A DNA stretch of 64,000 nt from a virus (lineage: Duplodnaviria > Caudoviricetes), in IMG/VR virus record IMGVR_UViG_3300028048_000042, one strand, 5' to 3'. Position numbers and translations under genes: made by a program. Positions 3,207 through 51,086 of this stretch are shown here, piece by piece. The number at the start of each line of letters is the position of its first letter. Within the stretch, counting starts at the first letter, position 1. The notes beneath the pieces are model-generated. The model was not told where the DNA came from and made no database searches. It saw only the letters and a list, made by a program, of their open reading frames with translations.

Positions 3207-3333
3207 AATTGTGCGGTTTTTGTCAGAATATGTATGTAAAGCAATAGAAATATTAAGCAATTTAAAAAAAATATTTAATGATTAGGTACTTGAAATAAGT
3301 ATTTTATATCGTAAATAAAATGAGGTGATATTT

Positions 3334-5811
3334 ATGAATAAACCTGTAGCAGGTAGCGAATACCGCGAAATGGGCGCATGGGGGCAGGAATTAAAAGTTT
3401 CTGCTCAGAAAGACCCAAATATGACGGTTGACGTAAATGCAGGTATTTTTTATACTGAGGGTATGAAACTTGTAGAATATGAAGGTGGCGTATCTCCTGT
3501 AATTAAAAAACCTTCTCAGTATAATGAATGGGTTGTTGTTTGCTTAAACAAACAGGGTACTCTTTATGTATTAGAAGGTGCTCCTGCACAGAAACCTGAA
3601 TTACCTGTTCTTGAAAAGAATTATCTTCCATTGGCTGCTATTTATTTAACTGCCAATACTACAAAAATCACAAGCGATATGATTTTTGATGTTCGTCCTC
3701 GCTTTGTAGCAGGTGGATATGCAGTTGACCATGCTAATGTAGAAAATACTAAGCAGGAAAATTGCCATCCTATTGATGCTATTACAAACCTTCGTGAAAC
3801 ATTGGATTCAAAAGCAACTCTGCTTGACCTTGATAAGTTAGATGAAAAGATTGATAATGTACATGGTACAAATGCAGCTACATTCGTACTTAATCAGGCT
3901 CAAACAGGTGTTCCTTTTGCTAATGTAGGTATTGCAGTTAAACGTGGTGAAGAAAACACCGTAGGTATTCGTTTTAACGAACATAAAGGTGCTTGGGAAT
4001 TCACAAATGATGGTTCTGTATGGAACGAATTCATTACTACTGTATCTTTGGATGGTAGTTTGCGTGAAGCAACTGCTAGTTCAAAAGGTGTTTCTCAGCT
4101 TTCTTGTGAACCTGTAGATGCATTCAAACCAATTGCTGTTGGTGATAATGACCCACGTATTTTGGCTGTAGCTAACAAAGCTGATAAAGTAGATGTTTAC
4201 ACCAAAGACGAAGTGGATGCAAAAATTTCAGAAAAAATTGATGACAAATTTACCTATTCTCGTCAATCCATTGATGAAATGCTCAAAGGTAAAATGGATG
4301 TAGGCACAATTTATACCGAAGCTGAAATTGATGCAAAATTGATGGGTAAAGCCAATGTTGGTGACTCTTACGATAAGGCAGAGGTTGATGTTGCGCTTGA
4401 TAAGAAAGCAAATAAAGCCGATGTTTATAGCAAGGTAGATGCTGATGCTGAATTTGCCAAGAAAGTTGCTGTATATGACAAAGCTGAAGCTGATACATTG
4501 TTTGCCAATAAAGCAAATGTAGCTGATGTTTATGACCGTTCTCAGGTAGACCTTATGCTTGCTGATAAAGCAGATGTTAATAATGTCTATGACCGAGCAC
4601 AGGTAGATGGAGCATTGCTTTTAAAAGCAGATAAAACTGATGTATATACTCAGGGTGAAGTAGACGCTGCACTTGCTCTTAAAGCAAATACTGAAAGTGT
4701 ATATAGCAAAACTGATGCAGATAACTTGCTCTTATTAAAAGCAGATAAATCAGATGTTTATGGTAAAGCTGACGCTGATTCTACATTTGCAACAAAAACT
4801 GAAGTATATAATAAAAACGAAGCAGATGCATTACTCGCAGATAAGGCAAATGCAGTTGATGTTTATAGCAAAACAGATGCTGATGTTAAGTTTGATGAAA
4901 AAGCAAATGTACTTGATGTTTATAATAAAACTCAGGCAGATGCATTGCTTGACACAAAAGCAGATAAAGCTAGTGTTTTCACAAAAGTAGAAATCGCTGA
5001 TGAATTGCTTCCTTATGCTAAAACTGATGATGTAATTACTCGTCTTGGTGATTATGCAAAAGCAAAAGTAACATATACAAAAGCTGAAGTTGACAATAAA
5101 CTTACTGAAAAAGCTAACGTTGCAGATGTTAAAGCTGCTCTCGAAATCAAAGCCGATGCTGCTCAGTATGATACAACTGCTGTTGTTAATGCTAAACTCG
5201 AAAACTATGTACGTAAGTCTGATTTCAATGTTCTTAACACAGAAGCGGCACGTTTGGCTGATGTATATACAAAAGCTGATATTGATGCTAAATTGAAAGA
5301 TAAAGGCAATAAGGCAGAATTGGTAGATTTGATTTCTACAAAAGTTGATGATGCTGATTTGCTTGAATATGTTAAGAAAGATGAACTTGATACAAAACTT
5401 AACAAATATGCTACAGTTAGTGTTGTAAACGCAAAAGCAGATGCTATTGATGTTTATACTAAAGATGAAGCTGATGCTAAGTATGAAACAACAAAACATT
5501 TAGCATCAACTCTTGCATTGTATGCAAAGAAATCCGAAATTGTTACTGCTGTTGACCTTAGTGATGAATTGTTGAAATATGCTACAACAGTTAGTGTTTC
5601 TGCAAAAGCTGACAAAACAGAAGTTGCAAAAGTTCAAAAAGATGTAGATGATTTGGCAGACATTGTTGGTCAGAAAGCTGAAATGTCACAGTTGAATATG
5701 TATATGAAAAAATCAGATTCCGTAGATAACGTTGTTCTTGAATCTGCTGATGGAAGCAAATTCCGTCTTACAGTTGATAATGACGGTAATCTCTCTGCGG
5801 TAAAACTCTAA
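3334..5811 (+). CDS. Fibre-like virion protein (head/collar/tail fibre) with long coiled-coil repeat shaft
   Basis: RBS GAGGTG then ATG 3334; many KA(D/N)xxDVYxKxExD repeats; C-terminal VLESADGSKFRLTVDNDGNL beta-hairpin typical of trimeric fibre ends. Confidence 0.7.
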   Translation: MNKPVAGSEYREMGAWGQELKVSAQKDPNMTVDVNAGIFYTEGMKLVEYEGGVSPVIKKPSQYNEWVVVCLNKQGTLYVLEGAPAQKPELPVLEKNYLPLAAIYLTANTTKITSDMIFDVRPRFVAGGYAVDHANVENTKQENCHPIDAITNLRETLDSKATLLDLDKLDEKIDNVHGTNAATFVLNQAQTGVPFANVGIAVKRGEENTVGIRFNEHKGAWEFTNDGSVWNEFITTVSLDGSLREATASSKGVSQLSCEPVDAFKPIAVGDNDPRILAVANKADKVDVYTKDEVDAKISEKIDDKFTYSRQSIDEMLKGKMDVGTIYTEAEIDAKLMGKANVGDSYDKAEVDVALDKKANKADVYSKVDADAEFAKKVAVYDKAEADTLFANKANVADVYDRSQVDLMLADKADVNNVYDRAQVDGALLLKADKTDVYTQGEVDAALALKANTESVYSKTDADNLLLLKADKSDVYGKADADSTFATKTEVYNKNEADALLADKANAVDVYSKTDADVKFDEKANVLDVYNKTQADALLDTKADKASVFTKVEIADELLPYAKTDDVITRLGDYAKAKVTYTKAEVDNKLTEKANVADVKAALEIKADAAQYDTTAVVNAKLENYVRKSDFNVLNTEAARLADVYTKADIDAKLKDKGNKAELVDLISTKVDDADLLEYVKKDELDTKLNKYATVSVVNAKADAIDVYTKDEADAKYETTKHLASTLALYAKKSEIVTAVDLSDELLKYATTVSVSAKADKTEVAKVQKDVDDLADIVGQKAEMSQLNMYMKKSDSVDNVVLESADGSKFRLTVDNDGNLSAVKL
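4171..5700 (+). repeat. Degenerate coding repeats of ~19 aa (57 bp), some 15 aa, consensus KADKxDVYxKxExDxxL
   Basis: e.g. KADKVDVYTKDEVDAKISE, KANVGDSYDKAEVDVALDK, KADKTDVYTQGEVDAALAL. Confidence 0.85.
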
Positions 5812-8748: not shown

Positions 8749-9071
8749 TGTATTCGTTTGAAATTTGGTTTGCAAATCAGAAAAGGGCAAAGGTTTGCAT
8801 TGATACTGAAGAAATGGTAATGGGATTTAAAGGCGGTAAAGATGATACTTTAAATTCATTGTTAACTATTATTGTAAATGCCCCATATTTAACAACCAAT
8901 ACAGGAGGTTTCAAAAATTCTTCATATATTGGATTGAAAGAAAAAATTACGATAAAAGACGAACGATTTGTTGACGTTTTAAAAACGCAATTGTTTCCAT
9001 ATGAGATAAAAAATCGTTCAGAAGTAAAAGATTTGACAATTGAAGAAGTTTTAAATACTGAAATCTCCTAA
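8745..9071 (+). CDS. Hypothetical protein
   Basis: RBS GGAGG, overlaps previous stop. Confidence 0.7.
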   Translation: MMYSFEIWFANQKRAKVCIDTEEMVMGFKGGKDDTLNSLLTIIVNAPYLTTNTGGFKNSSYIGLKEKITIKDERFVDVLKTQLFPYEIKNRSEVKDLTIEEVLNTEIS

Positions 9072-9100
9072 CGTATATAAGAATTGAAGGAGAGAATTGT

Positions 9101-9403
9101 ATGTTAAAAAGACTCTGTAATCATGTTTCTCCATTTACACATAATGTAGTTACTGATATTGTAAAGAAAAGTTCTAGCAATGAGATTGCTAGTAGTTATG
9201 CTCATGTGTTAGCAAAACAAATTTTGGCAGACTTGCCATTAATTCCGACAGGACATTTGGTTTATAATTTGACTCAGCAGATTCAGTTTGGTTTGCTTGA
9301 TTCTGTTTGTCCTTTGGAAGATGTAAAAAATCATTGGCAGGAATGCTTAGATGTTGCAGGTCAGTATTTAAAAGATATGGGTATTTGGTGTGAAGCGAAA
9401 TGA
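9101..9403 (+). CDS. Hypothetical head-region protein (MLKRL start)
   Basis: RBS AAGGAG; ATGA overlap with protease gene. Confidence 0.7.
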   Translation: MLKRLCNHVSPFTHNVVTDIVKKSSSNEIASSYAHVLAKQILADLPLIPTGHLVYNLTQQIQFGLLDSVCPLEDVKNHWQECLDVAGQYLKDMGIWCEAK

Positions 9404-10753: not shown

Positions 10754-11821
10754 ATGAATAAGAGATTGATTGCGGATAGAGCAGATATTCTTAAAAATGG
10801 ATATGAAGATTTAGTTGATGTAATTAATGATTCTTCAGAAGATGCAGTTAAAGAAGATTTTTTCAGTGTTATTAAAAAGAATTTCCCTGCAAAAACTTTT
10901 GTAGAAGCTACTTTAAAGCAGGGTGCGGCAACGCAGAATGAAATCAATAAAGAAACACTGATGAATAAGTTACCACAGTATTTGAAAGATACAGCGCATT
11001 TATATTATCAGAAATTCTACAAAAAACGTTTAATTGATGACGAAATCGCTTGTGAACCAAAAGATAAAATCTTTAAGCAAGCTGTTGAAAAGTTTTCTTC
11101 GGAAATTGTATTGAACGAAGAGTTGGGTAAAATGGTAGAAGATGCCATTAATGACGAAAGTGTTCAAGAACGTTATTTTAAACATGAAGAAAAGCCAAAA
11201 GAAAAAGAAAAATCAAAGGACAAAAAGCAAAACAATGAAGAGTTATCTTATGAGGAAGAAATTGAACAAACTGTCAAAAAACGAGGGGTTATACCATTTG
11301 GTGTTTTAAAAGATTTAGATGAACCTGTTGGAACAACAGGCATTCCAATTATGCCTGTTGATGTTGGGCGTAGAGATTATCCTTTTATTGTTATGGACAA
11401 TTCTATTTTCGTTAAAGGAACGTCAAAAGATAGCCATTCAACTGCATTGCATGAATGGGCAGAAAAACATAAAAATGACAAAACGGAATTAGGAAAAAAA
11501 CTTAAAGAAATTTATGATAAAAATGATGATGATTGGTATCGTGAGAATGCAATAGCTGCTCTTGCAAAAGCAGGAGTGACTAAATTAGCTTTCGGTCACG
11601 TTCGTGAAGATATGGCTTTTGTTGATACATGTGATGGATGTACAGCCGATGATGTAAAAAGTGTTGTAAAAAGTGGCACAGGAGTTTCCAAGGTTTATGA
11701 TGTAACAAAACATATGTCTTACGGTGCTTGGAGTGGAGTTCGTGTAGCTAGATTAATTCCTAATTACAATAAAGAAATGCATAATTCGGCTATTGAAGAA
11801 ATGAAAAAATTTAAGCATTAA
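10754..11821 (+). CDS. MNKRLIA-tagged protein with C-terminal RD...SH...FGH domain
   Basis: RBS AGGCGGT; tag; domain shared with 19403..20569. Confidence 0.75.
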   Translation: MNKRLIADRADILKNGYEDLVDVINDSSEDAVKEDFFSVIKKNFPAKTFVEATLKQGAATQNEINKETLMNKLPQYLKDTAHLYYQKFYKKRLIDDEIACEPKDKIFKQAVEKFSSEIVLNEELGKMVEDAINDESVQERYFKHEEKPKEKEKSKDKKQNNEELSYEEEIEQTVKKRGVIPFGVLKDLDEPVGTTGIPIMPVDVGRRDYPFIVMDNSIFVKGTSKDSHSTALHEWAEKHKNDKTELGKKLKEIYDKNDDDWYRENAIAALAKAGVTKLAFGHVREDMAFVDTCDGCTADDVKSVVKSGTGVSKVYDVTKHMSYGAWSGVRVARLIPNYNKEMHNSAIEEMKKFKH

Positions 11822-20569: not shown

Positions 20570-20648
20570 ACAAGGGAGCTAGGTACAAAAAGTGCCTAGC
20601 TTTGCTATAATATATAATAAAAGAAAATTTGAAATGAAGTGATATAAG

Positions 20649-21821
20649 ATGAAAAGACTTGCTAGTACAGAATTGACAGTTGTACACAGTCGTGAAGATA
20701 TTCCATCAACGGAAATGAAAAGTCTTTTTCTTGCAGGCCCTACTCCAAGAAAAAAGCATAATCTTGAATGGCGTTCGGAAGCAATTAAAATTCTTAAAGA
20801 ACTAGGCTATAATGGTATTGTATATACACCAACTGAACGTAAAGGTGAATTTGACCGTAATGTTCTGAAAGAGCAGTGTGCATGGGAATACAAGACAATG
20901 ATGGCTTGTGATGCTATTGTTTTTTGGATTCCTCGACAAAAACGACAAGATTTTGAAATGATTGCATTAACTACTAATGTGGAATTTGGTCGTTTCTTTG
21001 AGTCAAATAAAATGTTCTGTGGTGCTCCTAATGACGCAAAATCAATCGAATATTTGAAAATTATTTCTGAAAATAGATATGAATGGACAAATACTTTGCG
21101 AGATACACTTAAACGAGCTGTAGATTATCTTGGTGAAGGTGTATATCGTGAGGGAGCAGAGTGTTTAGTTCCTAAACATATTTTTGAATCTGCTCAATTT
21201 CAAAATTGGTATAAATCTCATAAGCAGAATGGAAATCAATTAACTGATTTTAAGACTTTGTTTGAATTCATTGCTCCTTATTCAAAGAAAATGTTTATGA
21301 CGATTTTTAAACCTGATGTGTTCATTGAAAAAGAAAATCGCACAAAAAATAATGAATTTGTAGTTGCAAGAACAGATGTATCATATATCTGTGCTTACCA
21401 TAAGACCAAAAAGGAAACTAAAATTCTTTTATGTGAAGAATTTAGAAGTCCTGTTGTAAATGATGATTCAATGGTTTATGAACTTGTGGGCGGTAGTAGT
21501 GATAATCCAAATGACGATGAATTGCAAGTTGCCGCAAATGAGTTTGAAGAAGAAACAGGCGTGAAATTAAAAAAGAGCAGATTCAAGAAGGTTGATATTA
21601 AACAGTCTGCAGCAACGCTTTGCTCTCATAGGATTACACTTTACTCTGTTGAATTAACGGATGAAGAAATTAAACATTTTGAGGAAGATAAAGATATTCA
21701 CGGAGTGACGGAAGCAACAGAACAGATTCATCTTCATGTCATGACTTTGGAAGATGCATTAAAGAAAGTAGATTGGACAAACGCAGGTATGATTTTTGCC
21801 GCAATGAAAGGAAAAGAATGA
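20649..21821 (+). CDS. Nucleoside 2-deoxyribosyltransferase-like (TIR-like fold) + Nudix hydrolase fusion with MKRLA tag
   Basis: N-term SLFLAGPT...WR...QCAWEY...CDAIVFW...TTNVEFG; C-term Nudix box ELVGGSSD...AANEFEEETG preceded by EEFRSPV (ADP-ribose pyrophosphatase-like). Confidence 0.85.
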   Translation: MKRLASTELTVVHSREDIPSTEMKSLFLAGPTPRKKHNLEWRSEAIKILKELGYNGIVYTPTERKGEFDRNVLKEQCAWEYKTMMACDAIVFWIPRQKRQDFEMIALTTNVEFGRFFESNKMFCGAPNDAKSIEYLKIISENRYEWTNTLRDTLKRAVDYLGEGVYREGAECLVPKHIFESAQFQNWYKSHKQNGNQLTDFKTLFEFIAPYSKKMFMTIFKPDVFIEKENRTKNNEFVVARTDVSYICAYHKTKKETKILLCEEFRSPVVNDDSMVYELVGGSSDNPNDDELQVAANEFEEETGVKLKKSRFKKVDIKQSAATLCSHRITLYSVELTDEEIKHFEEDKDIHGVTEATEQIHLHVMTLEDALKKVDWTNAGMIFAAMKGKE

Positions 21822-22921
21822 GTAATTATTTAAGAAAAGACATTTCTACAATTTTTGTTATGTTGGGTCATGAATGTAATTTACAATGTAAATATTGTTT
21901 GCAACATGACGTAGTAAATATTGCTTTGGATAAGCAGGTTAATCCTGATATTTATAATTTTATTTGTGAAACAGCTCGTAATCAGTCAACGCCGTTAGGA
22001 ATTCAGTTCTATGGTGGTGAACCATTAGTATTTTGGAATAAAATTGTGGAAATTGTAACAGAATTGGAAAGTAGAAATACAGGTAATAATATTTATTTCT
22101 CTATGATTACAAACGGTAAGTTGTTTGATGAAGAAAAGGTAAATTTTGTTAATGAACACAATATTGGTGTTTGCATTAGTTGGGATGGTAGAAATTCTAA
22201 CATTACACGAGGATATAATGTGTTTGAAACAAATAAAGAAAACATTTTTAAGATTAAAAACTTTTCCATATCAGGTGTAATGTCTTCTTATAATTATATT
22301 GGTGATTATTTGGAAGATGCAATTAATTTGAATCTTGATTACGTTAAAAATTATAATGGGCATACCATTCATGTAAACGTAGATGATTTGCTTGATATTA
22401 ATCTTCCAAATCCTGATTTAAAAGACTTTGATTATAATAAAGCATATGAACAAATGGAAGCATTATGCGATGAATATTATAATTATGTAAAGAATGGCGA
22501 ACGGTTAGAAGTAATTAAGGTTGAATATTTTGAAAGAAAAATCAATCAAATTCGAGGTGCAATTACTAGCAAACATTATCAACCATTGAGAGATAGATGT
22601 GGTAATGGTTGTGAAGTTATCAATATGGATTTGAATGGCAATCTGTACAAATGTCATAATACAGATGCTAAAGTCGGTACAATTTATGACAATGGATTTG
22701 ATGTTTTAAAACGAGTTTTTGATTTGGATATGGTAAATCATACAGCAGAAAAGTGCAATGAATGTCCTGTACAAATTATGTGTATGAATGGTTGTCCATT
22801 AGTAAAAGAAGCACCAAGGGAAGAGTTCTACTGCGCCATGATTAATATTATGAATTATCCTATAATGAAATTGGTTACTAGGTTGGGTGACGGAGTTGAA
22901 CGGAAAGATAACGAAAACTAA
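21818..22921 (+). CDS. Radical SAM/SPASM protein (putative peptide/protein maturase)
   Basis: CNLQCKYC, FYGGEPL, TNG, SWDG; SPASM CGNG...GNLYKCH...CNECPVQIMCMNGC...C; start at ATGA overlap 21818. Confidence 0.95.
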   Translation: MSNYLRKDISTIFVMLGHECNLQCKYCLQHDVVNIALDKQVNPDIYNFICETARNQSTPLGIQFYGGEPLVFWNKIVEIVTELESRNTGNNIYFSMITNGKLFDEEKVNFVNEHNIGVCISWDGRNSNITRGYNVFETNKENIFKIKNFSISGVMSSYNYIGDYLEDAINLNLDYVKNYNGHTIHVNVDDLLDINLPNPDLKDFDYNKAYEQMEALCDEYYNYVKNGERLEVIKVEYFERKINQIRGAITSKHYQPLRDRCGNGCEVINMDLNGNLYKCHNTDAKVGTIYDNGFDVLKRVFDLDMVNHTAEKCNECPVQIMCMNGCPLVKEAPREEFYCAMINIMNYPIMKLVTRLGDGVERKDNEN

Positions 22922-23420
22922 ATTCTCAGCATTTGACATTGAAAATATAACAAAAAAACAATTGTTGAATGAATTGGATAGTGCTTTAACAAAACTAGAA
23001 GGTTATGCAACAAAAGTCAACAATTGTGATTGTGCACAAATTTATTCTTGTCAAGAAATGAGATGCCAAATTAAAGGCAAGGGTACAGGAAATTGTAATT
23101 GGCATCCATGTCAATCAGCAAAAAATTGTATTGATATTGTTGGATGTCAAAAAATGAGTTGTCAGTATTTTACTTGTCAAAAAATAATTTGTCAGCAAGG
23201 TACAAGTTGTCAAACATGTCAGGCTTGTGAAAAATGCCAAGTGTGTGAAACTTGTGAAAGTCAATGCTTATGCCAAACATGTCAAGTATGTCAAAAACAA
23301 ACCTATGATGTTTATTCTTGTCAGCAGGTTAAGTGTCAGTCGTGTCAGACTTGCCAAGTGTTGTTATGTGAGAATGTTTCTTGCCAAGCTAGAAAATCTG
23401 ATGGTAGAGACTTAGAGTAA
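22887..23420 (+). CDS. Cys/Gln-rich repeat protein, candidate substrate of adjacent radical SAM
   Basis: 27 Cys by my count, 22 followed by Q/E, CQxCQxC runs; Cys-free ~45 aa N-terminal leader; overlaps radical SAM gene end. Confidence 0.8.
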   Translation: MTELNGKITKTKFSAFDIENITKKQLLNELDSALTKLEGYATKVNNCDCAQIYSCQEMRCQIKGKGTGNCNWHPCQSAKNCIDIVGCQKMSCQYFTCQKIICQQGTSCQTCQACEKCQVCETCESQCLCQTCQVCQKQTYDVYSCQQVKCQSCQTCQVLLCENVSCQARKSDGRDLE

Positions 23421-23487: not shown

Positions 23488-23805
23488 ATGGAAAAGTTTA
23501 AGAATGGTTTTTTTCATAATATAATGTCTGTAGACGAAACAAGAGTGTCAGTGCTAATGATAAGTCTTATTGGCGCATTGGTATTTGGCGGTTATATGTA
23601 CCTTTTAACAGGTGCTCTTAGTGTAGTTTGGGCAGATATTATTACTACTTTGATTTTGGCAGTTGCAGGTATTAATGCAGTAAACTCCATTACAACTAGC
23701 GGTATTTTTAGAAAAAATACTAATGAAATGGTAGAAATTGGGACAAGAGTTCCACAAGAAATTAAAAATACCACATCTGCTCAGAGTCAGCAATTAAAAA
23801 AATAA
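23488..23805 (+). CDS. Two-TM membrane protein, holin-like
   Basis: Two hydrophobic helices, polar C-terminus, RBS GAGGTGA. Confidence 0.5.
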   Translation: MEKFKNGFFHNIMSVDETRVSVLMISLIGALVFGGYMYLLTGALSVVWADIITTLILAVAGINAVNSITTSGIFRKNTNEMVEIGTRVPQEIKNTTSAQSQQLKK

Positions 23806-23811
23806 TTGATT

Positions 23812-23844
23812 GACAAAATGGGAGAATACTATCTCCCATTTTGT
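23812..23844 (+). terminator. Intrinsic terminator
   Basis: GACAAAATGGGAGA-atacta-TCTCCCATTTTGTT. Confidence 0.75.
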
Positions 23845-34735: not shown

Positions 34736-34794
34736 GTATGAATGTTATATGGTTGAGTGGGAAAAAGTATATTTTTCTTAGAGGTGACAGGGAC

Positions 34795-35832
34795 TTGAAA
34801 CATACAATACAGGTACATATGACAAATTCATGCAATTTAAAGTGTGAGTATTGTTACATAAAACAAAATTCATTATCGTTAACGCAAGATGTTCTTGAAC
34901 AACAGTTGGCAAAGGTCAAGGAATTGTCATATATGCTGAGTGGTTGTGATTGCGAATATGATGTTACTTATTTTGGTGGAGAGCCTTTATTGAAAATTGA
35001 CAATGTGTTAAAGTTTGATGAATATATTTGTGATAATTTTGATGTATGTCACAAATTTATGCAAACGAATGGTATGTTGTTGACAAAAGCAATCAAAGAA
35101 AAATTGGACGATAGAAAAATAAATATAGGAATTAGTTGTGATGGTTGCAATGACCCAAATCATAAAGAGGTCGAAAGATTATATCGAGAAAAAATAATCC
35201 ATATGCATCCTAAAATGATGGTTGATGGTTATAACGTTGGTTCGTTGATGGAAAATATAAAATATTTTTTTGATATGGCGATAAGAACTCAGTGCAGAGA
35301 TTTTTATATAGATGCTTCATTTGTTAAGGATAAAGTTTGGAATAAAAAATCATTAGAAATTCTTAAAACCCAATTAGACGAGTTAAATGATTTTATATTG
35401 TGGGTATATAAAAATTATAATTATTACTTAAAAATTGGATTTTTAGACAGAGTATTGCAAAACATTATCAAAGGGAAACGTGATTTTATTTGCTTCGCAG
35501 GCAGTACAGGATTTAGTATTACGCCAACAGGAGTGATATATCCATGTTCTAGGTTTTACAGTGCAAATGAATACCCTTTATATGATAGTAATAGAAATGA
35601 ATTTTTTTATGACAACATAGATTTCATTAAAAAGAATAATATAACAAAGAATGAAAAGTGTAATGAATGTGCGATAAACAAATATTGTAATCAAGGTTGT
35701 TATTATTCACAAATAAAAAATGGTGGCATTATTGACGAATATTGTGAAGTGCAAAAGATAGCTTTCCATAAAGTGACAGAGTTATACAAAAAATTCAGAA
35801 AATTCTATAATATAGATATAACGAGGATGTAA
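34795..35832 (+). CDS. Radical SAM/SPASM protein
   Basis: CNLKCEYC, YFGGEPL, QTNG; SPASM CFAG...G.IYPCSRF...CNECAINKYCNQGC...C; start moved to TTG 34795 after RBS GAGGTG. Confidence 0.95.
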   Translation: MKHTIQVHMTNSCNLKCEYCYIKQNSLSLTQDVLEQQLAKVKELSYMLSGCDCEYDVTYFGGEPLLKIDNVLKFDEYICDNFDVCHKFMQTNGMLLTKAIKEKLDDRKINIGISCDGCNDPNHKEVERLYREKIIHMHPKMMVDGYNVGSLMENIKYFFDMAIRTQCRDFYIDASFVKDKVWNKKSLEILKTQLDELNDFILWVYKNYNYYLKIGFLDRVLQNIIKGKRDFICFAGSTGFSITPTGVIYPCSRFYSANEYPLYDSNRNEFFYDNIDFIKKNNITKNEKCNECAINKYCNQGCYYSQIKNGGIIDEYCEVQKIAFHKVTELYKKFRKFYNIDITRM

Positions 35833-35834
35833 AT

Positions 35835-36275
35835 ATGCAAATTTTTAAACAGAATTCATCAATGCGTTCGAAAAAATTTAGAATTGACGATAGAGTTGTG
35901 AGGATTTGCGAAGCGAAATGGCGATACGATATTATTATTAATAATATTATTGCCATAAGTGATAATCAAAAATTAAAAAAGTATTTGCCAAAACGTATAG
36001 TATGTAATAGCAACAAAATAGAATATGATTATGTAGAAGGTAGAGATTTGGTAAAAAATTTCAACATCAAAGATAATTTTTTGTATGCTAAAATGCTATA
36101 TAATTTGTATGCAGAAAAAGTTTTTATTGCAGATATGCGAAGGGAAAACGTTATTGTTAATGAAGATGGGATTTGCATAATAGATTTAGATAGGCAACCA
36201 ATCTCTCGAAAAGAATTTTTGTTGTTTCATATTTGGGAGTTTGTTACTTTTGGATTTTTGGAAAATTTTAAGTAG
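35835..36275 (+). CDS. Minimal protein-kinase-like fold protein; paralogue of 41674..42165
   Basis: YDYVEGRDL hinge, D.RRENVI catalytic loop, IIDLD. Confidence 0.65.
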   Translation: MQIFKQNSSMRSKKFRIDDRVVRICEAKWRYDIIINNIIAISDNQKLKKYLPKRIVCNSNKIEYDYVEGRDLVKNFNIKDNFLYAKMLYNLYAEKVFIADMRRENVIVNEDGICIIDLDRQPISRKEFLLFHIWEFVTFGFLENFK

Positions 36276-36286
36276 GTGAGATATTT

Positions 36287-37345
36287 TTGAGAACGCCAAT
36301 GAGTGTATCAATCAATATGGGTAGTGGCTGTAATTTCCGTTGCAAATATTGTTTTGAGGTGAAAAACGGCGCAGTTAATCATCCAAAATCATTAACTGCA
36401 AAAACAAAAGAAAGAACAATTGAGGTTTTGCATTTGTTGCAAGAACTCCACGATTTGCGAATTGAATTTTGGGGTGGAGAACCGTCTGTATATTTCAAAG
36501 ATATAAAAGAAATCATTGATGAATTTACACCTTATGAAAATGTATCATTCTTTATGTATACAAATGGCTCTTTGGTAAGTCAGTATGCGGATGAATTGCT
36601 GGAAATTCATAAGAATGTTGGTCATAGATTTGAAGTGCAGGTATCTTATGATTATCAGAATTTGAGTAACAATCAGAGATTGCAATTAAATAAAACTGTT
36701 GAAGAAACAGATGAAATGGTTCGAGATGCAATTAAATTCTTCGATAGAAATGGATTCAAGTTTGGAACAAAAACGACTTGTACAATGAAGGACTTGGAAG
36801 AAAACATTTATGATATGTATCTAAATTATGAACAGTTAAATTCTGAATTGAAACATAAAGTTCCATTTGTTTGTACTCCTGATACTTTAGGTTCAGGTAG
36901 TATTGATTATGAAAAAATGCACGAACAGTTTGTAAAACTGATTAGATATTTTTTGAAGAATAAGAAATTCAAGCAAACAGGATTTTTGTGGTTTGACCAA
37001 AATGGTAATAAAGATTGTATGGGTGGAGCAAATTCATTCCAAATTGATATAGATGGCAGAGTAACGTATTGTCATGGATGTTTGTATATGAATGATAAGA
37101 TGTTTTATACAAATATTTTTGAGGATAATTTTTTGCATAAAATTGACCATAATTACCTTGTTGCAAATTCAAAATTTACAAAACCTGAACAATGCTTAAA
37201 TTGCAATTCGCAATTTTGCTTCAGATGTAATGCAATTAATAGTAAGGGAAATCCTGATAATTGGGATAAACCAAATTCACCTGAGGTATGCAAGCTGTAT
37301 CGAAAAATTTCTGAATATATAGAAGCATATTTAAGAATGAAATGA
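36287..37345 (+). CDS. Radical SAM/SPASM protein
   Basis: CNFRCKYC, FWGGEP, YTNG; CMGG...DG.VTYCHGC...CLNC.SQFCFRC...C. Confidence 0.95.
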   Translation: MRTPMSVSINMGSGCNFRCKYCFEVKNGAVNHPKSLTAKTKERTIEVLHLLQELHDLRIEFWGGEPSVYFKDIKEIIDEFTPYENVSFFMYTNGSLVSQYADELLEIHKNVGHRFEVQVSYDYQNLSNNQRLQLNKTVEETDEMVRDAIKFFDRNGFKFGTKTTCTMKDLEENIYDMYLNYEQLNSELKHKVPFVCTPDTLGSGSIDYEKMHEQFVKLIRYFLKNKKFKQTGFLWFDQNGNKDCMGGANSFQIDIDGRVTYCHGCLYMNDKMFYTNIFEDNFLHKIDHNYLVANSKFTKPEQCLNCNSQFCFRCNAINSKGNPDNWDKPNSPEVCKLYRKISEYIEAYLRMK

Positions 37346-37448
37346 ATAATTTTTTAGCTGTAGCACTTTGTTATTTGTTTTTGTGTTTTTTGTATTAAAT
37401 GGATAGAGTGCAATAAAATAAAAAAATAATAATGGAAGTGATACAAAA

Positions 37449-38810
37449 ATGTCAATGACAGCAACTAAGTACATTTCAGCATTTTATCAAATCATAAAAG
37501 ACCCAACAGGCACTTTCCCTATTTGTAGACCATATGGTACAAGCGGAAACGATAAAGGGTATGATTTTGGTACTGCATTTTGGGATGGTACTTATTACAA
37601 AGCAAATGCAGATAATGCTAAAGGATTAGCAGGATTTAATAGACGAGATAAAATGTTGAGAGAGACATTTAGTACGGCTGAACCTATTACTAATGTGGAA
37701 TGGAATCAGTTGATTACGAAACTGAGACAGGAATTCGCAATTCGTTGCGAATTTAATGGTTCATATGTTCCATCTGTAAAAACTGTTGGTGTTACAGAAA
37801 CAGGTGATAGAACAAAATCAGGCTCTGACAATCATCAATTCTTTAGTCCAAAAGATGAAATCCTAAGAGAAGATTATAAGAATATCTATCGTGATATTAT
37901 GAGTTTGCTTGTATATGAAATTCCTGTTGAAGATGCCGTAAATAATCCTCGTCTTCCTATGGATAATTTCTCATTCAACCGCAAAAATACCGCAGGTGGA
38001 TATGGCGGTGATTCATCTAACTTGGATGTTAATCCTAACGCAGAAGCCATTAATGAAGGTACTCGTGTGGGGAATAACTGGTGGACAGGACAGAAAATGC
38101 GTGAATATATGTATAGACACGCAACAGGTGCTACTGCAAATAAGGTTATTACAAGTAATGCTAATAACGGTATTTTGTTGACTATGGGATTACCAAGTGA
38201 CATTTTAACTAATAAGGAATATGGTTATACTACATTTGGTAGCCGTAATGTTGCAGCATATATTCCTGGTTCTGATATGAATACAACAAAAACAGTAAGA
38301 AGTAGCAAAAGACCTTATGGTAATACAGACTATCTTGCAAAAACAGTTGATGAAAATGGCACAACTCATATTTTGAAAAATTCAAATGGATTTTATCAGG
38401 TTTCTCAGGAATTTAAGGATATGGTTGCAAAACGTAAACAGTTCTTGGGTGGTAATGTTAAGGTTAAGTGTACACGTACTGTTTTAACAGGTAAAGATGA
38501 ATATGGTATGCCAAAATATGTAACAGAAAAAGAAGAGCGTGAAATGCCACTTGTAACAGCGTTGACATCTGTTACTGTTTCAGGTAACTATACTGTAGAT
38601 ATTAGCGCAGATAGCGTAGGAAGATATTACATGGCTATGGTAAATCAGTTAGCAAGAACTTGTGTATGTAACTGTAATTATTGCTCTTGCTTTGGTCATG
38701 AAGCTAGTTGTATTTGTTATGTTGTAAAAGTTTCAGGTTGGTGCTATTCTTATCAGTATGATTTTGATGCAAACAGAGGTTGGATTTCACCTGAAACTGT
38801 TGCAAAATAA
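37449..38810 (+). CDS. Fibre-like virion protein with Cys-rich C-terminal tip (candidate radical SAM substrate)
   Basis: G/T/N-rich body; C-terminal RTCVCNCNYCSCFGHEASCICY...WCY; follows two SPASM genes. Confidence 0.65.
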   Translation: MSMTATKYISAFYQIIKDPTGTFPICRPYGTSGNDKGYDFGTAFWDGTYYKANADNAKGLAGFNRRDKMLRETFSTAEPITNVEWNQLITKLRQEFAIRCEFNGSYVPSVKTVGVTETGDRTKSGSDNHQFFSPKDEILREDYKNIYRDIMSLLVYEIPVEDAVNNPRLPMDNFSFNRKNTAGGYGGDSSNLDVNPNAEAINEGTRVGNNWWTGQKMREYMYRHATGATANKVITSNANNGILLTMGLPSDILTNKEYGYTTFGSRNVAAYIPGSDMNTTKTVRSSKRPYGNTDYLAKTVDENGTTHILKNSNGFYQVSQEFKDMVAKRKQFLGGNVKVKCTRTVLTGKDEYGMPKYVTEKEEREMPLVTALTSVTVSGNYTVDISADSVGRYYMAMVNQLARTCVCNCNYCSCFGHEASCICYVVKVSGWCYSYQYDFDANRGWISPETVAK

Positions 38811-38825
38811 GAAAGGATTATTTTC

Positions 38826-39098
38826 GTGGAAAAACAGATTACAGAAAAAGAAACAAAAGAATTGGAAACGCAGATTAGACTCTTGTGCGAGTATATGAGT
38901 ATGACAGAAGAGTTTATTAAGCCTATTGATGAAATTGCTTGCAAAGCAATTGATAATATCATTAGCATGACAATGATTAGCCTTGGACGAAAGCATGGGT
39001 TGGATTATACATCTAGTGATAAGTCAAAAATTGATGAAAAGAAAGAAAAATCAATTGATGACATTATGAAAGATATAAATGAAGGGACGAAAGATTAA
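38826..39098 (+). CDS. Small hypothetical protein
   Basis: RBS AAAGGA, GTG start. Confidence 0.65.
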   Translation: MEKQITEKETKELETQIRLLCEYMSMTEEFIKPIDEIACKAIDNIISMTMISLGRKHGLDYTSSDKSKIDEKKEKSIDDIMKDINEGTKD

Positions 39099-39730
39099 TG
39101 GCACAGATGTTATTTTATTCAGGTATTATGAAACAGGGGGAGAAAAATTTCCTTGTTAATCCTTTTGAAAAAATTGTTGGTGAGCCTATTTGCTTGCAGA
39201 AAGATGAATATGTTAGTTTGACAGCAGAAGCATATGACAAATTGGTTAATGTTCTTGATTTAAAGTATCGTGAACCAATGTGCATTGTTTATGTTGAAGG
39301 TACAGTTGATGCTGATACGATGGTTAAACTTGAAGACTTGAAGTTCGTAGAGCAGAAACTTGATGCGACAGAGGAAGAAAAGTTGGATATGTACAAAGAA
39401 AAATCCATTCGCATTATGAATGAAATTATTTCAAGTCAGATGATGATTTCCAACTTTGAATTGTTCCATTTCTTTAAATTGAATCATTATCTTGAAGCAA
39501 AAGGCATTTTCATCATTGATGAAAATCGAGAGGAAGAATACATGAAGGTAATTGAAAGTGGCGATGCAGATACATTGCAGGTTCTTTCTGAATATCTTGA
39601 TGCGCTCGATGAATTTAATGTTATTGATGAAAAATATACAAAATATAAAGAGTATAAGGATAAGGTAAAAGCTGCTCAGACCGCAAAGGAAGTTGAGGAA
39701 GTATTTTATGAGTTTACAGCCAAACTATAA
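39098..39730 (+). CDS. Putative fibre assembly/chaperone protein
   Basis: C-terminal KVKAAQTAKEVEEV resembles the I.AA.T.EEV ending of tail-fibre assembly (DUF4376-like) proteins. Confidence 0.45.
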   Translation: MAQMLFYSGIMKQGEKNFLVNPFEKIVGEPICLQKDEYVSLTAEAYDKLVNVLDLKYREPMCIVYVEGTVDADTMVKLEDLKFVEQKLDATEEEKLDMYKEKSIRIMNEIISSQMMISNFELFHFFKLNHYLEAKGIFIIDENREEEYMKVIESGDADTLQVLSEYLDALDEFNVIDEKYTKYKEYKDKVKAAQTAKEVEEVFYEFTAKL

Positions 39731-40532
39731 AAATATAGTTTATATGACTGATAAATCTTATCTTTTTCAAACTTACGTTTCAATGTTATCTTTGAAACAA
39801 AATAAACGCTGTAATGTGAGTTACAGCGTTTATTTATTATGTATTGAATTTGATGATTTGGGTAAGATTGAGTCATTAAACAGTGAAGATTTTCAAATCA
39901 AACCAATTTATATCAAAAAAAACATATTCAAAAGACCTGATAATGCAGGTGTTGTGTATTATAAGTTGTTATTGCATGAGTTGTTGGATTGCGATGTTGT
40001 TTTTCACATTGATTCTGATACGGTGGTCGTAGATGATGTATCGGATATTTTTGATATAGATATATCTGATTATTATTGTGGTGCAGTAAGAGACAAGATA
40101 AAAGGGTTTAGATATTTTAACGCAGGGAACGTGTTGTTTAATTTGAAAAAAATTAGAGAAGATGTTGTAAATGATACAGACACAATGTATGTTTATTATG
40201 ACAGGTTAAATAAACAGTTGCAAGATGAAAAATGTTTTCTTTGGGAACAAGATGTTTTAAATGAAGCATTTAAAGGGAAAATTAAATATATTCATTATGG
40301 ATATAACTTTTTAGTAAACACATATAGCAAATATGGATTTAATGAATTGGTGAGATTGTATGGAGAACCTGTAAAATCAGAAAATTTAAAAATTTTGCAT
40401 TATGCAAGTTTCCCAAAACCTTGGAAAAGACCCAATTTGTTTGGGCAAATTTGGAAGATGTATGCAGAAGAAACTGCAAATAAGGAAAAAGAAAAAATGA
40501 TATTGAAGGTGGCTTGTCGTGAATTTAAATGA
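39708..40532 (+). CDS. Glycosyltransferase family 8
   Basis: IVYMTDKSY, HIDSDTVV, YFNAGNVLFNL, EQDVLN, ILHYASFPKPW; start moved to ATG 39708. Confidence 0.93.
   Translation: MSLQPNYKNIVYMTDKSYLFQTYVSMLSLKQNKRCNVSYSVYLLCIEFDDLGKIESLNSEDFQIKPIYIKKNIFKRPDNAGVVYYKLLLHELLDCDVVFHIDSDTVVVDDVSDIFDIDISDYYCGAVRDKIKGFRYFNAGNVLFNLKKIREDVVNDTDTMYVYYDRLNKQLQDEKCFLWEQDVLNEAFKGKIKYIHYGYNFLVNTYSKYGFNELVRLYGEPVKSENLKILHYASFPKPWKRPNLFGQIWKMYAEETANKEKEKMILKVACREFK
39800..39835 (+). terminator. Terminator-like 15-bp perfect hairpin inside the GT8 coding sequence
   Basis: AAATAAACGCTGTAA-tgtgag-TTACAGCGTTTATTT. Confidence 0.6.
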
Positions 40533-41661
40533 TAATAATATGTTTTTGTATCAGTTTATCTTGGGGACTGATATGAAAGTAAAAACTCGAAACCAAGACA
40601 CTATTTTAGTTACTTGCAATATTGTATCAAGGGAAGACAAAAATTATTTGTGGGGAGCAGAGAAGTATTGCGTTAAAATTTGTAAAGCGTTGTCAAAAAA
40701 ATACAAAGTGCATTTGTTTCAACATGCAAAGGATTTTCTTGAATTGGATAATGTAGTTGTGCATTCTAATATAGATAATTTCTTTTCAAAGGAAAGAATG
40801 AAAGTAACTGCAAATAAAGTTAAGGCAGTTGCACCAAAATGTATTCTTTGTAATGCAGGCAGTGGACAGCAAGCATTGTATTGGACTATTATTGCAAAGA
40901 TGGTAAATGTACCAATTATAATGTTCTTTCATAATGAACCTGAATATATGTTAAAAACAATTAGCAATATATGGGGCATGAATTACATTAAGAACCAAAA
41001 AGTTGTAAAAAACTCGCAAAAACTGTATGATATGGTCTTGGAAAATTGCAACAAATTAGCATTTTTGTTACCTCAGTATATTGATAAACGATATGAGAAG
41101 AAATCATATGTTTTTTACAATTGTGTAGAATTACCTGAACACGTTGATGTTGAACAAGAAAGACAGAACATCTTGTATGTTGGTCGTATAAATTCGGATG
41201 TTAAACGTACAGATTTACTAATAGATGCAGTAAAAGATACGGAATATCCATGTTATATTTGTGGATATAATTATTATGGTCAAGGCTATATAGACATGAG
41301 TTGGTATGAAGATACAAATATCCATTATGAAGGGTATCAGGAAAATGTAGCTGATTATTATAAAAATGCTAAAGTTCTTGTAATCCCATCTTTATTGGAA
41401 GGTTTGCCAACAGTTGCTTTAGAAGCTATGTCATATGGTGTTCCTGTGCTTGGATTCAAAGAATGTAAATCAATAAATGATATAGTAAAAGATGGATATA
41501 ATGGTTGGGTAATTGAAAATGATTTGAAGGGGAAAATATCTGAAATTATGTCCATTGAAGATATGACAGAAATTAGAAAAAATTGTATAGAAGAATCAAA
41601 AAAATATAGCATAGAAAAAATCATGGTTGAAATTGAAAAAGCGATAAAATCATGTCGGTAA
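40519..41661 (+). CDS. Glycosyltransferase family 4 (GT-B)
   Basis: WGAE, ILYVGRI...KR, PS..EGLPTVALEAMSYGVPV, VKDGYNG. Confidence 0.93.
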   Translation: MNLNDNNMFLYQFILGTDMKVKTRNQDTILVTCNIVSREDKNYLWGAEKYCVKICKALSKKYKVHLFQHAKDFLELDNVVVHSNIDNFFSKERMKVTANKVKAVAPKCILCNAGSGQQALYWTIIAKMVNVPIIMFFHNEPEYMLKTISNIWGMNYIKNQKVVKNSQKLYDMVLENCNKLAFLLPQYIDKRYEKKSYVFYNCVELPEHVDVEQERQNILYVGRINSDVKRTDLLIDAVKDTEYPCYICGYNYYGQGYIDMSWYEDTNIHYEGYQENVADYYKNAKVLVIPSLLEGLPTVALEAMSYGVPVLGFKECKSINDIVKDGYNGWVIENDLKGKISEIMSIEDMTEIRKNCIEESKKYSIEKIMVEIEKAIKSCR

Positions 41662-41673
41662 AGGGATATTGAT

Positions 41674-42165
41674 ATGAAAATTTTAACAACTGATAAAAAT
41701 AAAAATTTATTAAGTAAAGACACTGACTTTAAATTTGTTAGTAATGGGTGTGTTTATAGGTTTGTCAGTGAAACAGTTAAACAAGATATATTGATAAATT
41801 ATCATAATATTGTTGATAAAAATTTACAAAAATATTTACCGAAAAATATTTGTATTAATCGCAATATGGTTACTTATCAATATGTGGAAGGTAGAGATTT
41901 GGAATATTGCTATTCAATAAGAATGAATTATTTATATGCAAAAATGTTGTTCGAGCTTTGGAAATCAAATTGTTATATTTTTGACCTTTCTCGAAGAAAC
42001 GTTATTTTTGATGGAGAAAAAATTGTCATTATAGATTTGGATTGTAAGCCAAAAGCAAATTGTACAAAATGGCAATATGCAAAAGAATGTTTGTATCGTT
42101 TTAGAGATACAATGGTAAATTGTGGGACTATGATAAAAAGATTGGAAAGATTTTTATGCGAGTGA
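41674..42165 (+). CDS. Minimal protein-kinase-like fold protein
   Basis: YQYVEGRDL, DLSRRNVI, IIDLD. Confidence 0.65.
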   Translation: MKILTTDKNKNLLSKDTDFKFVSNGCVYRFVSETVKQDILINYHNIVDKNLQKYLPKNICINRNMVTYQYVEGRDLEYCYSIRMNYLYAKMLFELWKSNCYIFDLSRRNVIFDGEKIVIIDLDCKPKANCTKWQYAKECLYRFRDTMVNCGTMIKRLERFLCE

Positions 42166-43055
42166 ATTTAATTTATTTTTTGTATGAGTTAAATGGAGCT
42201 TATACTTCATTTGAAGACTTGTTCTACAATTTGAAGCGTTTTACAGATAATGATGTTCGATTTATTATTTTATATGAAGATAAGGATGTGCTTGTTCGAT
42301 TTAAAGAATATTTGGCTTTCGGAACAGGTATTTGCTATTTACAAATTGAAAAAGAAGGGTATCATAATATGAAATTTCCTATCAAATACGATATTAAGGG
42401 AGATATAAATGTTATTAGTACCGAAATTATTCAGTTGGAATGGCATGACAGATTTGTACAACATTCAAACAAAACATATTTGCTATATCCTGCCTTTGTA
42501 TATAAAGATGAAGGACTAGACCACAGCATTTTTGAGTATCAAATGAATTATATTAAAGAACATAATGTTTTGACAATTTGTAATGAATTTAATGCAAAGT
42601 ATGTGGATAATAGTTTTGTTTGGTATATGAAGTTTTCACCTGAACGAATTGAAAAAATAAAAAAGCTTGTTAGTTTTGAAAATGATACTTTGGTAGCAGA
42701 AGATTATTACAAGAATAAAATGGAAGGTAGAAATATAAAACCTTTTTCGTATAAAAAATATGAATATTATAGATATGACAAGAAAAATGATTTCAACAAC
42801 TATACTGATAATGGAGCAAGATATTATGAAAATATCGGTAAATTAATGTTTGAATTTGTTTTTCTTGGCAAAGAATCGACATATTCACCAAAGAATAAAA
42901 AGTTCTTTGATGGATTGAGTGAATTTATGAGATATATTGGATATGATGACGAAAAGGAATATACTTTTACTAAAGATGATATGCCATTGTTAAAAAAGAA
43001 ACTGTATATGGATAAAGATGATGAAATATTAAAACTCTTTAGAGAAGAAGGTTAA
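42156..43055 (+). CDS. Hypothetical protein, possible glycosyltransferase-fold; paralogue of 17946..18794
   Basis: Shared motifs; start moved to ATG 42156. Confidence 0.55.
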   Translation: MRVNLIYFLYELNGAYTSFEDLFYNLKRFTDNDVRFIILYEDKDVLVRFKEYLAFGTGICYLQIEKEGYHNMKFPIKYDIKGDINVISTEIIQLEWHDRFVQHSNKTYLLYPAFVYKDEGLDHSIFEYQMNYIKEHNVLTICNEFNAKYVDNSFVWYMKFSPERIEKIKKLVSFENDTLVAEDYYKNKMEGRNIKPFSYKKYEYYRYDKKNDFNNYTDNGARYYENIGKLMFEFVFLGKESTYSPKNKKFFDGLSEFMRYIGYDDEKEYTFTKDDMPLLKKKLYMDKDDEILKLFREEG

Positions 43056-43058
43056 AAA

Positions 43059-44651
43059 ATGAAAATTTTAGGTATTCAGTGTTATCAGGATTATAATGTT
43101 TGTTATTATGATACAGAAACAAAAGAGTTAAAATATATTGAGTTAGAGAAATTGTTGAAGAGAAAACATTTTTCTTTTCATAGTGAAAAACTCGATTATA
43201 TGCATGAAATTGATAGGATATATAATGACAACCTTAGAAATAATCTTTATAAGACGCAGAAAATTATTCACAAAGAATTGGGCGTTGATAGATTTGACCT
43301 AATTTGTTGGAATTATACACGATTTGAAGATGGATATTTGAAAAAAGAATCTTTTGATTTTATTAAAATGTTGGAAAAATGTGATATTCAAAAGTTCCAC
43401 CATCAAGAAAACCATGTATTACCTGCAATTGTGGAAAATCATTTACAAGAAGCATTGTGTGTCTCCGTTGATGGTAAAGGTGATGGAAACCATGCAATTT
43501 ATACTTGGAAAGATGGCAAATTGACAAAGTTGTTTCAGGAGCATAGATTTTCTTATGGTATGTTCTATGAAGTCCTTTCTGCATATTTCTTAACAGATGA
43601 CCATGTGTACTATCAAGGTGCAGAAGGTAAATTCATGGCGTATGCAGGGTTATCTAATAACTTTGTAAAAATTGTGGATATAGATTATTTTATGGATAAG
43701 ATTAAAAATACTGATTGGAATAATTGGGAAGAAAAAGTAAAAATTCAAAATTATATTTTTAATTTTTTAGATACACAATCTCAGTATTTTGATAAAAAAG
43801 ATTTAGCATATACCATGCAAAAATTGTGGTTGGATTCTTTGATTCGTGATATTGCAAAATATCGTCACGGACAAAGGAATTTAGTTATTTCAGGCGGTTG
43901 TGCTCTTAATTGTATGCTTAATTATTTGTTGATAAAAACAGGTTGGTTTGAAAATGTATACTTCACACCAATTGCTTCTGATGTTGGTCAGTCGTATGGA
44001 GCTGTATTGAATTACTTGCTGAGATATAAGCCTGAAGAAATCAAACATATTAATACGAGACAATATTCTGTTACCGAAATGTATAGAGATAAAGATTATT
44101 TTAAATCAATTGAATCTAATTTTGCAGATATTAATGTAAATAAAATTGTTGATGCTTTGGCTGATGGGAAAGTAATTGGTGTTTGTCGTGGCAACATTGA
44201 GATGGGGCCTCGTGCTTTGGGCAATCGTAGTATTTTAGCGGCACCATTTAAGGCAGAAATGAAAACGAAGCTAAATGAATTAAAAGGAAGAGAACAATAT
44301 CGACCTTATGGTATTCTTGTCCCTCGTGAAGAAATGGGCAAATATTTTGATATTGATGTAGATGCAACATATATGAATGTTTTAGCTTATTGCAATGATT
44401 CAAAATTATTACTTGGTGCGCAACATCATGATAAAACAGTTCGTGTGCAGACTGTGGATAAAAAGAATAATCCGTGGCTTTATAATTTATTAATGGCGTT
44501 TAAGAAAAGAACAGGTGTACCTATTCTTATCAATACTTCATTCAATGATAGTGGTTTGCCTATTTTTAATTATGTTGAAGATATGTATAGAATGTATCAA
44601 GAAAAATTAGATGGATTGGTTATTGATGAAAAAATGATTATGAAGGATTGA
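43059..44651 (+). CDS. Carbamoyltransferase (NodU/CmcH family)
   Basis: HHQENH, VDGKGD, EGKFMAYA, SGGCALNC, SDVGQSYGA, EMGPRALGNRSILA, RVQTV, INTSFN. Confidence 0.95.
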   Translation: MKILGIQCYQDYNVCYYDTETKELKYIELEKLLKRKHFSFHSEKLDYMHEIDRIYNDNLRNNLYKTQKIIHKELGVDRFDLICWNYTRFEDGYLKKESFDFIKMLEKCDIQKFHHQENHVLPAIVENHLQEALCVSVDGKGDGNHAIYTWKDGKLTKLFQEHRFSYGMFYEVLSAYFLTDDHVYYQGAEGKFMAYAGLSNNFVKIVDIDYFMDKIKNTDWNNWEEKVKIQNYIFNFLDTQSQYFDKKDLAYTMQKLWLDSLIRDIAKYRHGQRNLVISGGCALNCMLNYLLIKTGWFENVYFTPIASDVGQSYGAVLNYLLRYKPEEIKHINTRQYSVTEMYRDKDYFKSIESNFADINVNKIVDALADGKVIGVCRGNIEMGPRALGNRSILAAPFKAEMKTKLNELKGREQYRPYGILVPREEMGKYFDIDVDATYMNVLAYCNDSKLLLGAQHHDKTVRVQTVDKKNNPWLYNLLMAFKKRTGVPILINTSFNDSGLPIFNYVEDMYRMYQEKLDGLVIDEKMIMKD

Positions 44652-44657
44652 TATTAA

Positions 44658-45416
44658 TTGAAACATATACCTTTGATTGAATATCACCTAACAAACCATT
44701 GCAATTTAAACTGTAAGGGGTGTGCTCATTTTGCACCTCTTGCAGAGCCTTGGTTTGCAGATGTAAAGCAATTTGAAAAAGATTTAAACAAATTAACAGA
44801 TAAAGTAATTATTGATGAATTGATTATGTTTGGTGGAGAACCATTATTGCATCCAACAATATGTGATTTCTTTGAAATGGCAAGAAAAATTTTACCACAT
44901 GCAAAAATTTGTGTTTTAACGAATGGAGTTAATTTATTGAAAGAGTTGCCTAAATTAAAGGATTCTCTTGTTAAGAATGAAATTATTGTTGATATAACAA
45001 GTTATCCGATTAACGTTAATTATAAAATGACATTGAAAATGTTAAAAGCATTTGGAGTAAAATATAAAATTTATAATGATTTAGAACCAATAAAAACATT
45101 AAGAAAACATAAATTATCTCATGAAAAGAAAGAAAATACATGGGATTGCTTAATGATAAATTCTAAATCTGTGCAGTTGAAAGATGGGAAATTGTATATT
45201 TGTCCAATACAAGCGTATATTGATATTTTTAACAAATATTTTAATGAGAATTATGAGGTTGACGAATCGGATATTTTGACTCTTACAGATGATACAACAG
45301 ATGATGAAATCTTAAATATGTATTATCACAAAAATGAATTTTGCAAATTTTGTAGAGAACCAATTGTAGGAAATAAATATTCTACATCAAAAAGAGATAA
45401 GCAAGAATGGACGTAA
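44658..45416 (+). CDS. Radical SAM protein (CxxxCxxCxHFAP subtype)
   Basis: CNLNCKGCAHFAP, GGEPLLHP, TNG, GKLYICP, C-terminal CKFC...EW. Confidence 0.93.
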   Translation: MKHIPLIEYHLTNHCNLNCKGCAHFAPLAEPWFADVKQFEKDLNKLTDKVIIDELIMFGGEPLLHPTICDFFEMARKILPHAKICVLTNGVNLLKELPKLKDSLVKNEIIVDITSYPINVNYKMTLKMLKAFGVKYKIYNDLEPIKTLRKHKLSHEKKENTWDCLMINSKSVQLKDGKLYICPIQAYIDIFNKYFNENYEVDESDILTLTDDTTDDEILNMYYHKNEFCKFCREPIVGNKYSTSKRDKQEWT

Positions 45417-45431
45417 AATTAAAAAAGTGTT

Positions 45432-51083: not shown

Positions 51084-51086
51084 AGT

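Follow-up and report, generated by a model that had tools for sequence, protein, structure and literature searches.

Introduction

That a radical SAM/SPASM enzyme can modify a Cys-rich substrate of protein size has already been published. In what appears to be the closest described system, CrpC/CrpA of Methanococcus voltae, the enzyme CrpC was shown by mass spectrometry to thioether-link a protein of 28.8 kDa (PMC13692751). The locus described here, found in a stretch of viral DNA of 64,000 nucleotides that was analysed as a whole (hereafter, the window), resembles CrpC/CrpA in placing a seven-Cys SPASM enzyme beside a protein-sized, putative Cys-repeat substrate, and CrpA also has a C-X-X-Q/D motif. 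In contrast, CrpC comes from an archaeal chromosome and carries an RRE in residues 1-92, whereas the window enzyme has no RRE; moreover, other motifs (e.g., CAVD and CPLVL) hold the mapped cross-links of CrpA, which has no viral or fibre link.

Other known systems share parts of this layout. CteB/SCIFF (5WGG, TIGR03974) and PapB/freyrasin (NF047865) show the same arrangement of SPASM cysteines, a His after the Cys of auxiliary cluster I (AuxI) and an acceptor-type residue after the substrate Cys, but the window enzyme, besides lacking an RRE, falls far below the cutoffs of both families, its putative substrate is 174 aa long and dominated by Gln rather than Asp/Glu, and no transporter or protease accompanies it. 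In the case of the CXXX-repeat system (TIGR04114/TIGR04115, PF27846), a regular Cys repeat is likewise found beside a radical SAM/SPASM enzyme, and one of the prophage type 2 chains described below gave a weak lead to it in Atlas (score 0.87, 19% of members); the repeat of the window, however, runs in periods of 3 and 5 and not 4 (one of 26 intervals) and has no TIGR04114 match, and its prophage relatives lie in a phage tail context. The enzyme anSME (TIGR03942, PDB 4K36-39) is also RRE-less, acts on a protein and is among the top Foldseek matches, although it differs in its fully ligated auxiliary clusters and in the Asp after the AuxI Cys, where the window family has an invariant His, and no sulfatase is encoded nearby. 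Classical RiPP clusters, finally, combine a short precursor with a protease and an exporter, whereas here the putative substrate is much longer than typical precursors (174-300 aa), as the initial annotation had pointed out, and neither of these genes is adjacent. A literature search, with most subscription journals outside its coverage, found no description of the phage cassette, which is real, conserved and undescribed.

Results

The window and its phage

Judged from its sequence, the window is part of a phage-G-like jumbo phage: portal, prohead protease and major capsid protein are all encoded within it, the last with 77% identity to gp27 of Bacillus phage G. The gene next to that of the portal (3325-5811) encodes 828 aa made up of KADK-type repeats, with weak matches to tail fibres. 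Close relatives of the window are found on contigs of 330-400 kb, and its DNA is present in bovine and pig gut metagenomes. A search of phage G for the enzyme gave no match, and no cultured phage carrying the cassette was found. In the enzyme tree, the jumbo-phage sequences group together with support and have a Sporomusaceae sequence as their sister, other relatives coming from Negativicutes prophages, a placement that suggests a Negativicutes-like anaerobe as the host of the window phage.

The radical SAM/SPASM enzyme

The enzyme, a putative thioether-forming maturase of 367 aa, is encoded intact on the plus strand (21818-22921) and is under purifying selection relative to three relatives. 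It has the SAM-cluster motif CxxxCxxC (C20, C24 and C27; 21875-21898, plus strand), in which C24 and C27 are present in all 79 aligned family members and C20 in 78, a GGEP motif, and a SPASM domain (22598-22834, plus strand) whose seven cysteines (261, 279, 313, 316, 322, 326 and 339) and His280 are invariant across the 79 relatives. The predicted structure (pLDDT 93) shows the radical SAM and SPASM folds, so that motif, GGE, SPASM cysteines and fold all place the protein in the radical SAM/SPASM superfamily. The SAM motif starts at residue 20 (within residues 5-33 across the family alignment, and in no member later than about residue 34), and the enzyme accordingly lacks an N-terminal RRE domain.

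Assignment within the superfamily is less direct. The best NCBIfam match is PapB NF047865, at 123 bits below a cutoff of 340, and the CteB/SCIFF model TIGR03974 gives 86 bits, below its cutoff of 425; TIGR04463, the CrpC model, is absent among the best 25 NCBIfam matches. Among PDB sequences, CteB 5WGG is the best match, and identity to characterised thioether formers amounts to ~20-25%. By cutoff, RRE or precursor type, the protein thus sits outside the PapB, CteB and CrpC families alike.

At the six positions defined by their proximity to the catalytic site (PMC10288494), the enzyme reads L/Y/I/S/H/N, CteB F/F/T/S/H/Q and anSME F/Q/Q/S/D/F; two residues are identical to those of CteB, three similar and one different, a profile clearly unlike that of anSME and one that favours thioether chemistry. 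C261-C326 and His280 also align with CteB, in which the seven-Cys SPASM layout leaves an open iron on AuxI (PMC6231123), as is predicted for CrpC (PMC13692751). About half of the family has an additional, non-invariant Cys at 259/260, and the window enzyme has C265; an open site on AuxI is therefore not certain, since these residues could fill it.

The Cys-Gln repeat protein

Directly overlapping the enzyme gene is the Cys-rich reading frame, as the initial annotation had stated. Read from GTG (22887-23420) it encodes 177 aa and overlaps by 35 nt; several homologues, however, have their start Met at the position of the in-frame TTG 22896, and therefore a protein of 174 aa (22896-23420, plus strand) with an overlap of 26 nt is more likely. 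We refer to this putative substrate and fibre-tip subunit as a type 1 chain. Its first segment (22896-23024, plus strand), an extended stretch followed by a helix predicted at residues 20-40, is free of Cys, in agreement with the earlier reading, up to residue 46 (177-aa numbering), and has homologues in the type 1 chains that tail modules of Negativicutes prophages encode. A profile built from the prophage N-termini alone matches the window protein with E=6e-11, its sole significant match in the window, so the homology is independent of the low-complexity repeat. The segment may be a retained structural part rather than a removable leader. The same profile does not match the window protein at 37449, and a helix shared with that protein is unsupported.

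The core (23025-23384, plus strand), as read from the sequence, contains 27 Cys, arranged in C-(Q/E) units of period 3 and period 5. Q follows the Cys in 18 cases and E in four, and the figure of 22 of 27 already given by the initial annotation is thus correct; it was reached by none of 100,000 shuffled cores, the maximum being 14. The spacings had been described as Cxx, Cxxx and Cxxxx, of which the first and third hold, while the second is marginal: the 26 intervals comprise period 3 nine times, 5 eight times, 6 four times, 2 and 10 twice each, and 4 (Cxxx) only once. Across the jumbo-phage chains, Q/E occupies position +1 for 82% of the cysteines whatever the spacing. We also considered a fixed, PapB-like i+4 rule and rejected it, Q/E being found at +4 for only 35% of the cysteines against 82% at +1.

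Close orthologues retain nearly every Cys, and some contain Cys-free inserts of 35-75 residues that bring them up to about 300 aa, a size more in keeping with a protein than with the core of a peptide. The gene is under purifying selection (pS about 0.7 vs pN 0.22-0.38, three relatives). The window protein has no family match in Pfam, PHROG, NCBIfam or PDB, known fibres included, and no usable match in Atlas; none of 32 type 1 chains matched NCBIfam. The monomer model is of low confidence (pLDDT 40), and a trimer prediction score of 0.01 carries no weight either way.

Relatives in prophage tail modules

A phage neighbourhood survey, which the initial annotation had put forward as a check, links the enzyme to Cys-rich partners well beyond the window. 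Counting Cys-Gln genes within 2.5 kb in 49 non-redundant enzyme loci, we found a Cys-tailed neighbour in 45, of which 31 have one or two Cys-Gln genes and 14 another Cys-tailed protein; four have none. The loci are related by descent, and these counts are thus not independent events. Some of the other Cys-tailed neighbours are real tail fibres.

Prophages with the cassette occur in Acidaminococcus, Megasphaera and Selenomonadaceae, and in temperate phages the genes run from a tail-fibre gene and the enzyme to chain 1 and chain 2, followed by a Hint-like gene, a second radical SAM gene between two accessory genes, and finally holin and endolysin. The 18 upstream fibre genes examined all have one C-terminal domain in common; 11 match a single PHROG tail-fibre family and seven the Peptidase_G2 chaperone domain. 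In the P2-like L138, and likewise in L143, the Cys-Gln chains come after a short fibre stub, and in Phascolarctobacterium (L027), with an enzyme of the same clade, free Cys-Gln genes are absent and a tail fibre of 463 aa has a Cys-Asn/Asp run at its end. Because relatives place the pair among tail-fibre genes, cross-linking of part of the virus fibre is the probable role of the enzyme. The idea that the enzyme clade is specific for Cys-Gln was rejected, as members also pair with Cys-Asp/Asn tails.

Two further observations concern these relatives. A stand-alone Hint-like gene with a weak Pfam Hint_2 match lies directly 3' of two Cys-Gln genes in L014 (9844-10254) and L025 (9822-10208). A chromosomal enzyme copy in Sporomusaceae (L011) occurs with a protein whose end consists of Cys-Asp repeats and a long Gly-Asp tail (8865-9350), with no clear tail genes.

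Jumbo-phage relatives and the second chain

In the G-like jumbo phages, only chain 1 adjoins the enzyme. The type 2 chain of G003, a genome that is 98% complete, lies at a distance of about 70 kb, counted across the ends of the contig, behind a 240-aa fibre-like gene with a weak tail-fibre match, and the same arrangement is seen in L185 and L186. No type 2 chain was found in the window, and a metagenome scan for it with P0140 gave no match; a second Cys-Gln chain would probably have to come from elsewhere in the genome of the window phage. Neither the prophage accessory genes nor a chaperone-ended fibre was found in the window or in G001-G003. In the 500-kb relative L009, the enzyme and the holin-like gene are retained with no Cys-Gln gene between them (11087-11202).

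L009 encodes, 9 kb away, a 230-aa CNCNYC-repeat protein whose neighbours include other radical SAM genes. Both L093 (6219-7328) and G003 have, upstream of the pair, a paralogue of the enzyme from the same clade, and in both the putative substrate is of the long type, with 300 aa. In phage G005, of 504 kb (L182, 7686-11772), a 193-aa protein with repeated CHxx units at its end lies between radical SAM genes and directly follows a chaperone-ended fibre gene. The window itself has a second cassette (34738-39730), which is conserved in G003 (L184) and no more than distantly related to the first enzyme; it combines two SPASM enzymes and a kinase-like gene with two further proteins, one of 453 aa with a terminal CxCNCNYC run and one of 210 aa that is helical. 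Five more radical SAM genes of the window lie in a long operon of lower GC (39693-52124), together with a carbamoyltransferase-like gene and several that resemble glycosyltransferases.

Flanking genes and expression signals

Upstream, a nucleoside-deoxyribosyltransferase-like/NUDIX fusion (20649-21821, plus strand) is translationally coupled (ATGA) to the enzyme gene; it is absent from L001-L003, which retain the enzyme/Cys-Gln pair, and is probably outside the system. Downstream lies a gene for a small holin-like membrane protein (23488-23805, plus strand; Pfam Phage_holin_4_1 E=0.0037, below cutoff), which every G-like relative examined has at the same place; it is retained even where the Cys-Gln gene is absent and may therefore lie outside the system. 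Farther downstream are dUTPase and helicase genes. Family searches of the flanks found no transporter, exporter or peptidase adjacent to the pair, consistent with what had been noted before. In the window and its G-like relatives, the pair sits among nucleotide-metabolism genes and not among fibre genes.

The motif TAT-N8-TAGA is unevenly spread over the two strands, with 21 forward copies and two reverse copies where about 10 would be expected. It stands ahead of the portal and capsid genes and is a putative late promoter. In L092 it is found 25 nt upstream of the NUDIX-enzyme-substrate unit; it is not directly upstream in the window, where late expression is thus only suggested. A sigma-70 scan gave matches at chance level. 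The RNA run X9 contains short contigs covering both genes, and contigs cannot show transcription. A perfect inverted repeat between the holin-like and dUTPase genes (23813-23841) is followed by an extended -10-like element, and a similar hairpin is found before the NUDIX gene (about 20573-20600).

Discussion

In this study, we have described an enzyme/Cys-Gln pair whose relatives belong to phage tail modules. Our leading reading, held tentatively and at a little under even chances, is that the enzyme is a dedicated maturase that would install Cys thioethers in a fibre-tip or similar appendage protein, and not in a secreted peptide. Its components differ in strength: the enzyme very probably acts on the adjacent Cys-Gln protein, the product can be expected with good reason to be fibre-associated, and the chemistry is likely to be thioether formation. 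The coupling of enzyme and substrate, and the choice of a fibre over a secreted peptide, which the initial annotation had raised as a possibility, gain support by comparison from the co-occurrence of the two genes, the prophage tail modules and the Cys tails fused to fibres, but a location beside fibre genes does not hold for the pair in the window. A more detailed version, possible although the balance lies against it, is that phages infecting anaerobes of the gut assemble their fibre tip out of two paralogous Cys-Gln chains, with the RRE-less enzyme linking some 20 Cys to neighbouring Gln/Glu side chains and Gln serving as a new acceptor; a virion component would then be stapled by an enzyme in the manner of a RiPP.

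The sequence of events would be as follows. The enzyme, having no RRE, would dock on the conserved N-terminal segment of the substrate. By analogy with CteB, PapB and CrpC, a 5'-deoxyadenosyl radical would take a hydrogen from the CH2 beside the Gln/Glu side-chain carbonyl, while the substrate Cys would be bound to the open iron of AuxI. Repetition of the C-S bond along the C-(Q/E) units would yield a poly-thioether (ranthionine-type) ladder, and the modified chain, as the gene order suggests, would then join the second, paralogous Cys-Gln chain and the fibre stub.

PapB takes Asp/Glu acceptors from i+1 to i+7, and its cross-linking is reportedly confined to acidic side chains (PMC12373016); since most residues here are Gln, a Gln acceptor would be new. 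It is conceivable, although unlikely, that the protein is indeed a fibre or appendage subunit whose cysteines bind metal (Zn, Fe or Fe-S, in a metallothionein- or zinc-ladder-like manner) or form disulfides, while the enzyme performs another chemistry, such as epimerisation, desaturation or C-C coupling, or alters only a few terminal residues. The many CxxC pairs of the core would fit such a protein, SPASM enzymes carry out many reactions, with anSME and ChlB both among the top fold matches, and sister loci with the same enzyme clade have only short Cys-Asn/Asp tails. Metal binding, however, does not need a fixed amide or acid residue after the Cys at every spacing, no metal-binding family matches the Cys-Gln protein, and the active-site profile of the enzyme is nearer to that of CteB.

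The metabolic surroundings of the pair, the missing prophage accessory genes, the loss of the Cys-Gln partner in L009 and a putative late-promoter motif that is not directly upstream of the unit in the window would fit a modified protein that is no virion part in this jumbo phage but an assembly helper, an intracellular factor or the displaced remnant of a prophage tail cassette. We consider this improbable in view of the purifying selection across a saturated synonymous distance, the retention of both chain types in G003, where type 2 lies next to a fibre-like gene, and the late-type motif close to the unit in L092. A conventional RiPP, with a leader cut off and a cross-linked peptide freed at lysis as an antibacterial or signal, is very improbable: the leader-plus-core layout, the holin-like neighbour and the Hint-like gene of the prophage cassettes, which could be a protease (a weak match), recall such a system, but the window locus has no peptidase or transporter, the chains reach 170-300 aa with large inserts, and the cassette is fixed in tail modules, with Cys tails fused to fibres.

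Maturation by thioether cross-linking in a fibre-tip protein, if true, would extend radical SAM chemistry of this type to virion proteins, having been known so far from bacterial peptides and a few cellular proteins. From a methodological point of view, the window locus is a minimal pair of one enzyme and one substrate and is easily tested, and it would provide a processive, RRE-independent cross-linking enzyme. Radical SAM genes of phages have been ascribed to host metabolism in a study of Campylobacter phage (PMC2853527); fibre maturation, if confirmed, would be one way to account for some of the load of such genes in phages that is otherwise unexplained. For the phage itself, the cross-links would mean a reduction-proof stiffening of the fibre in the anoxic gut.
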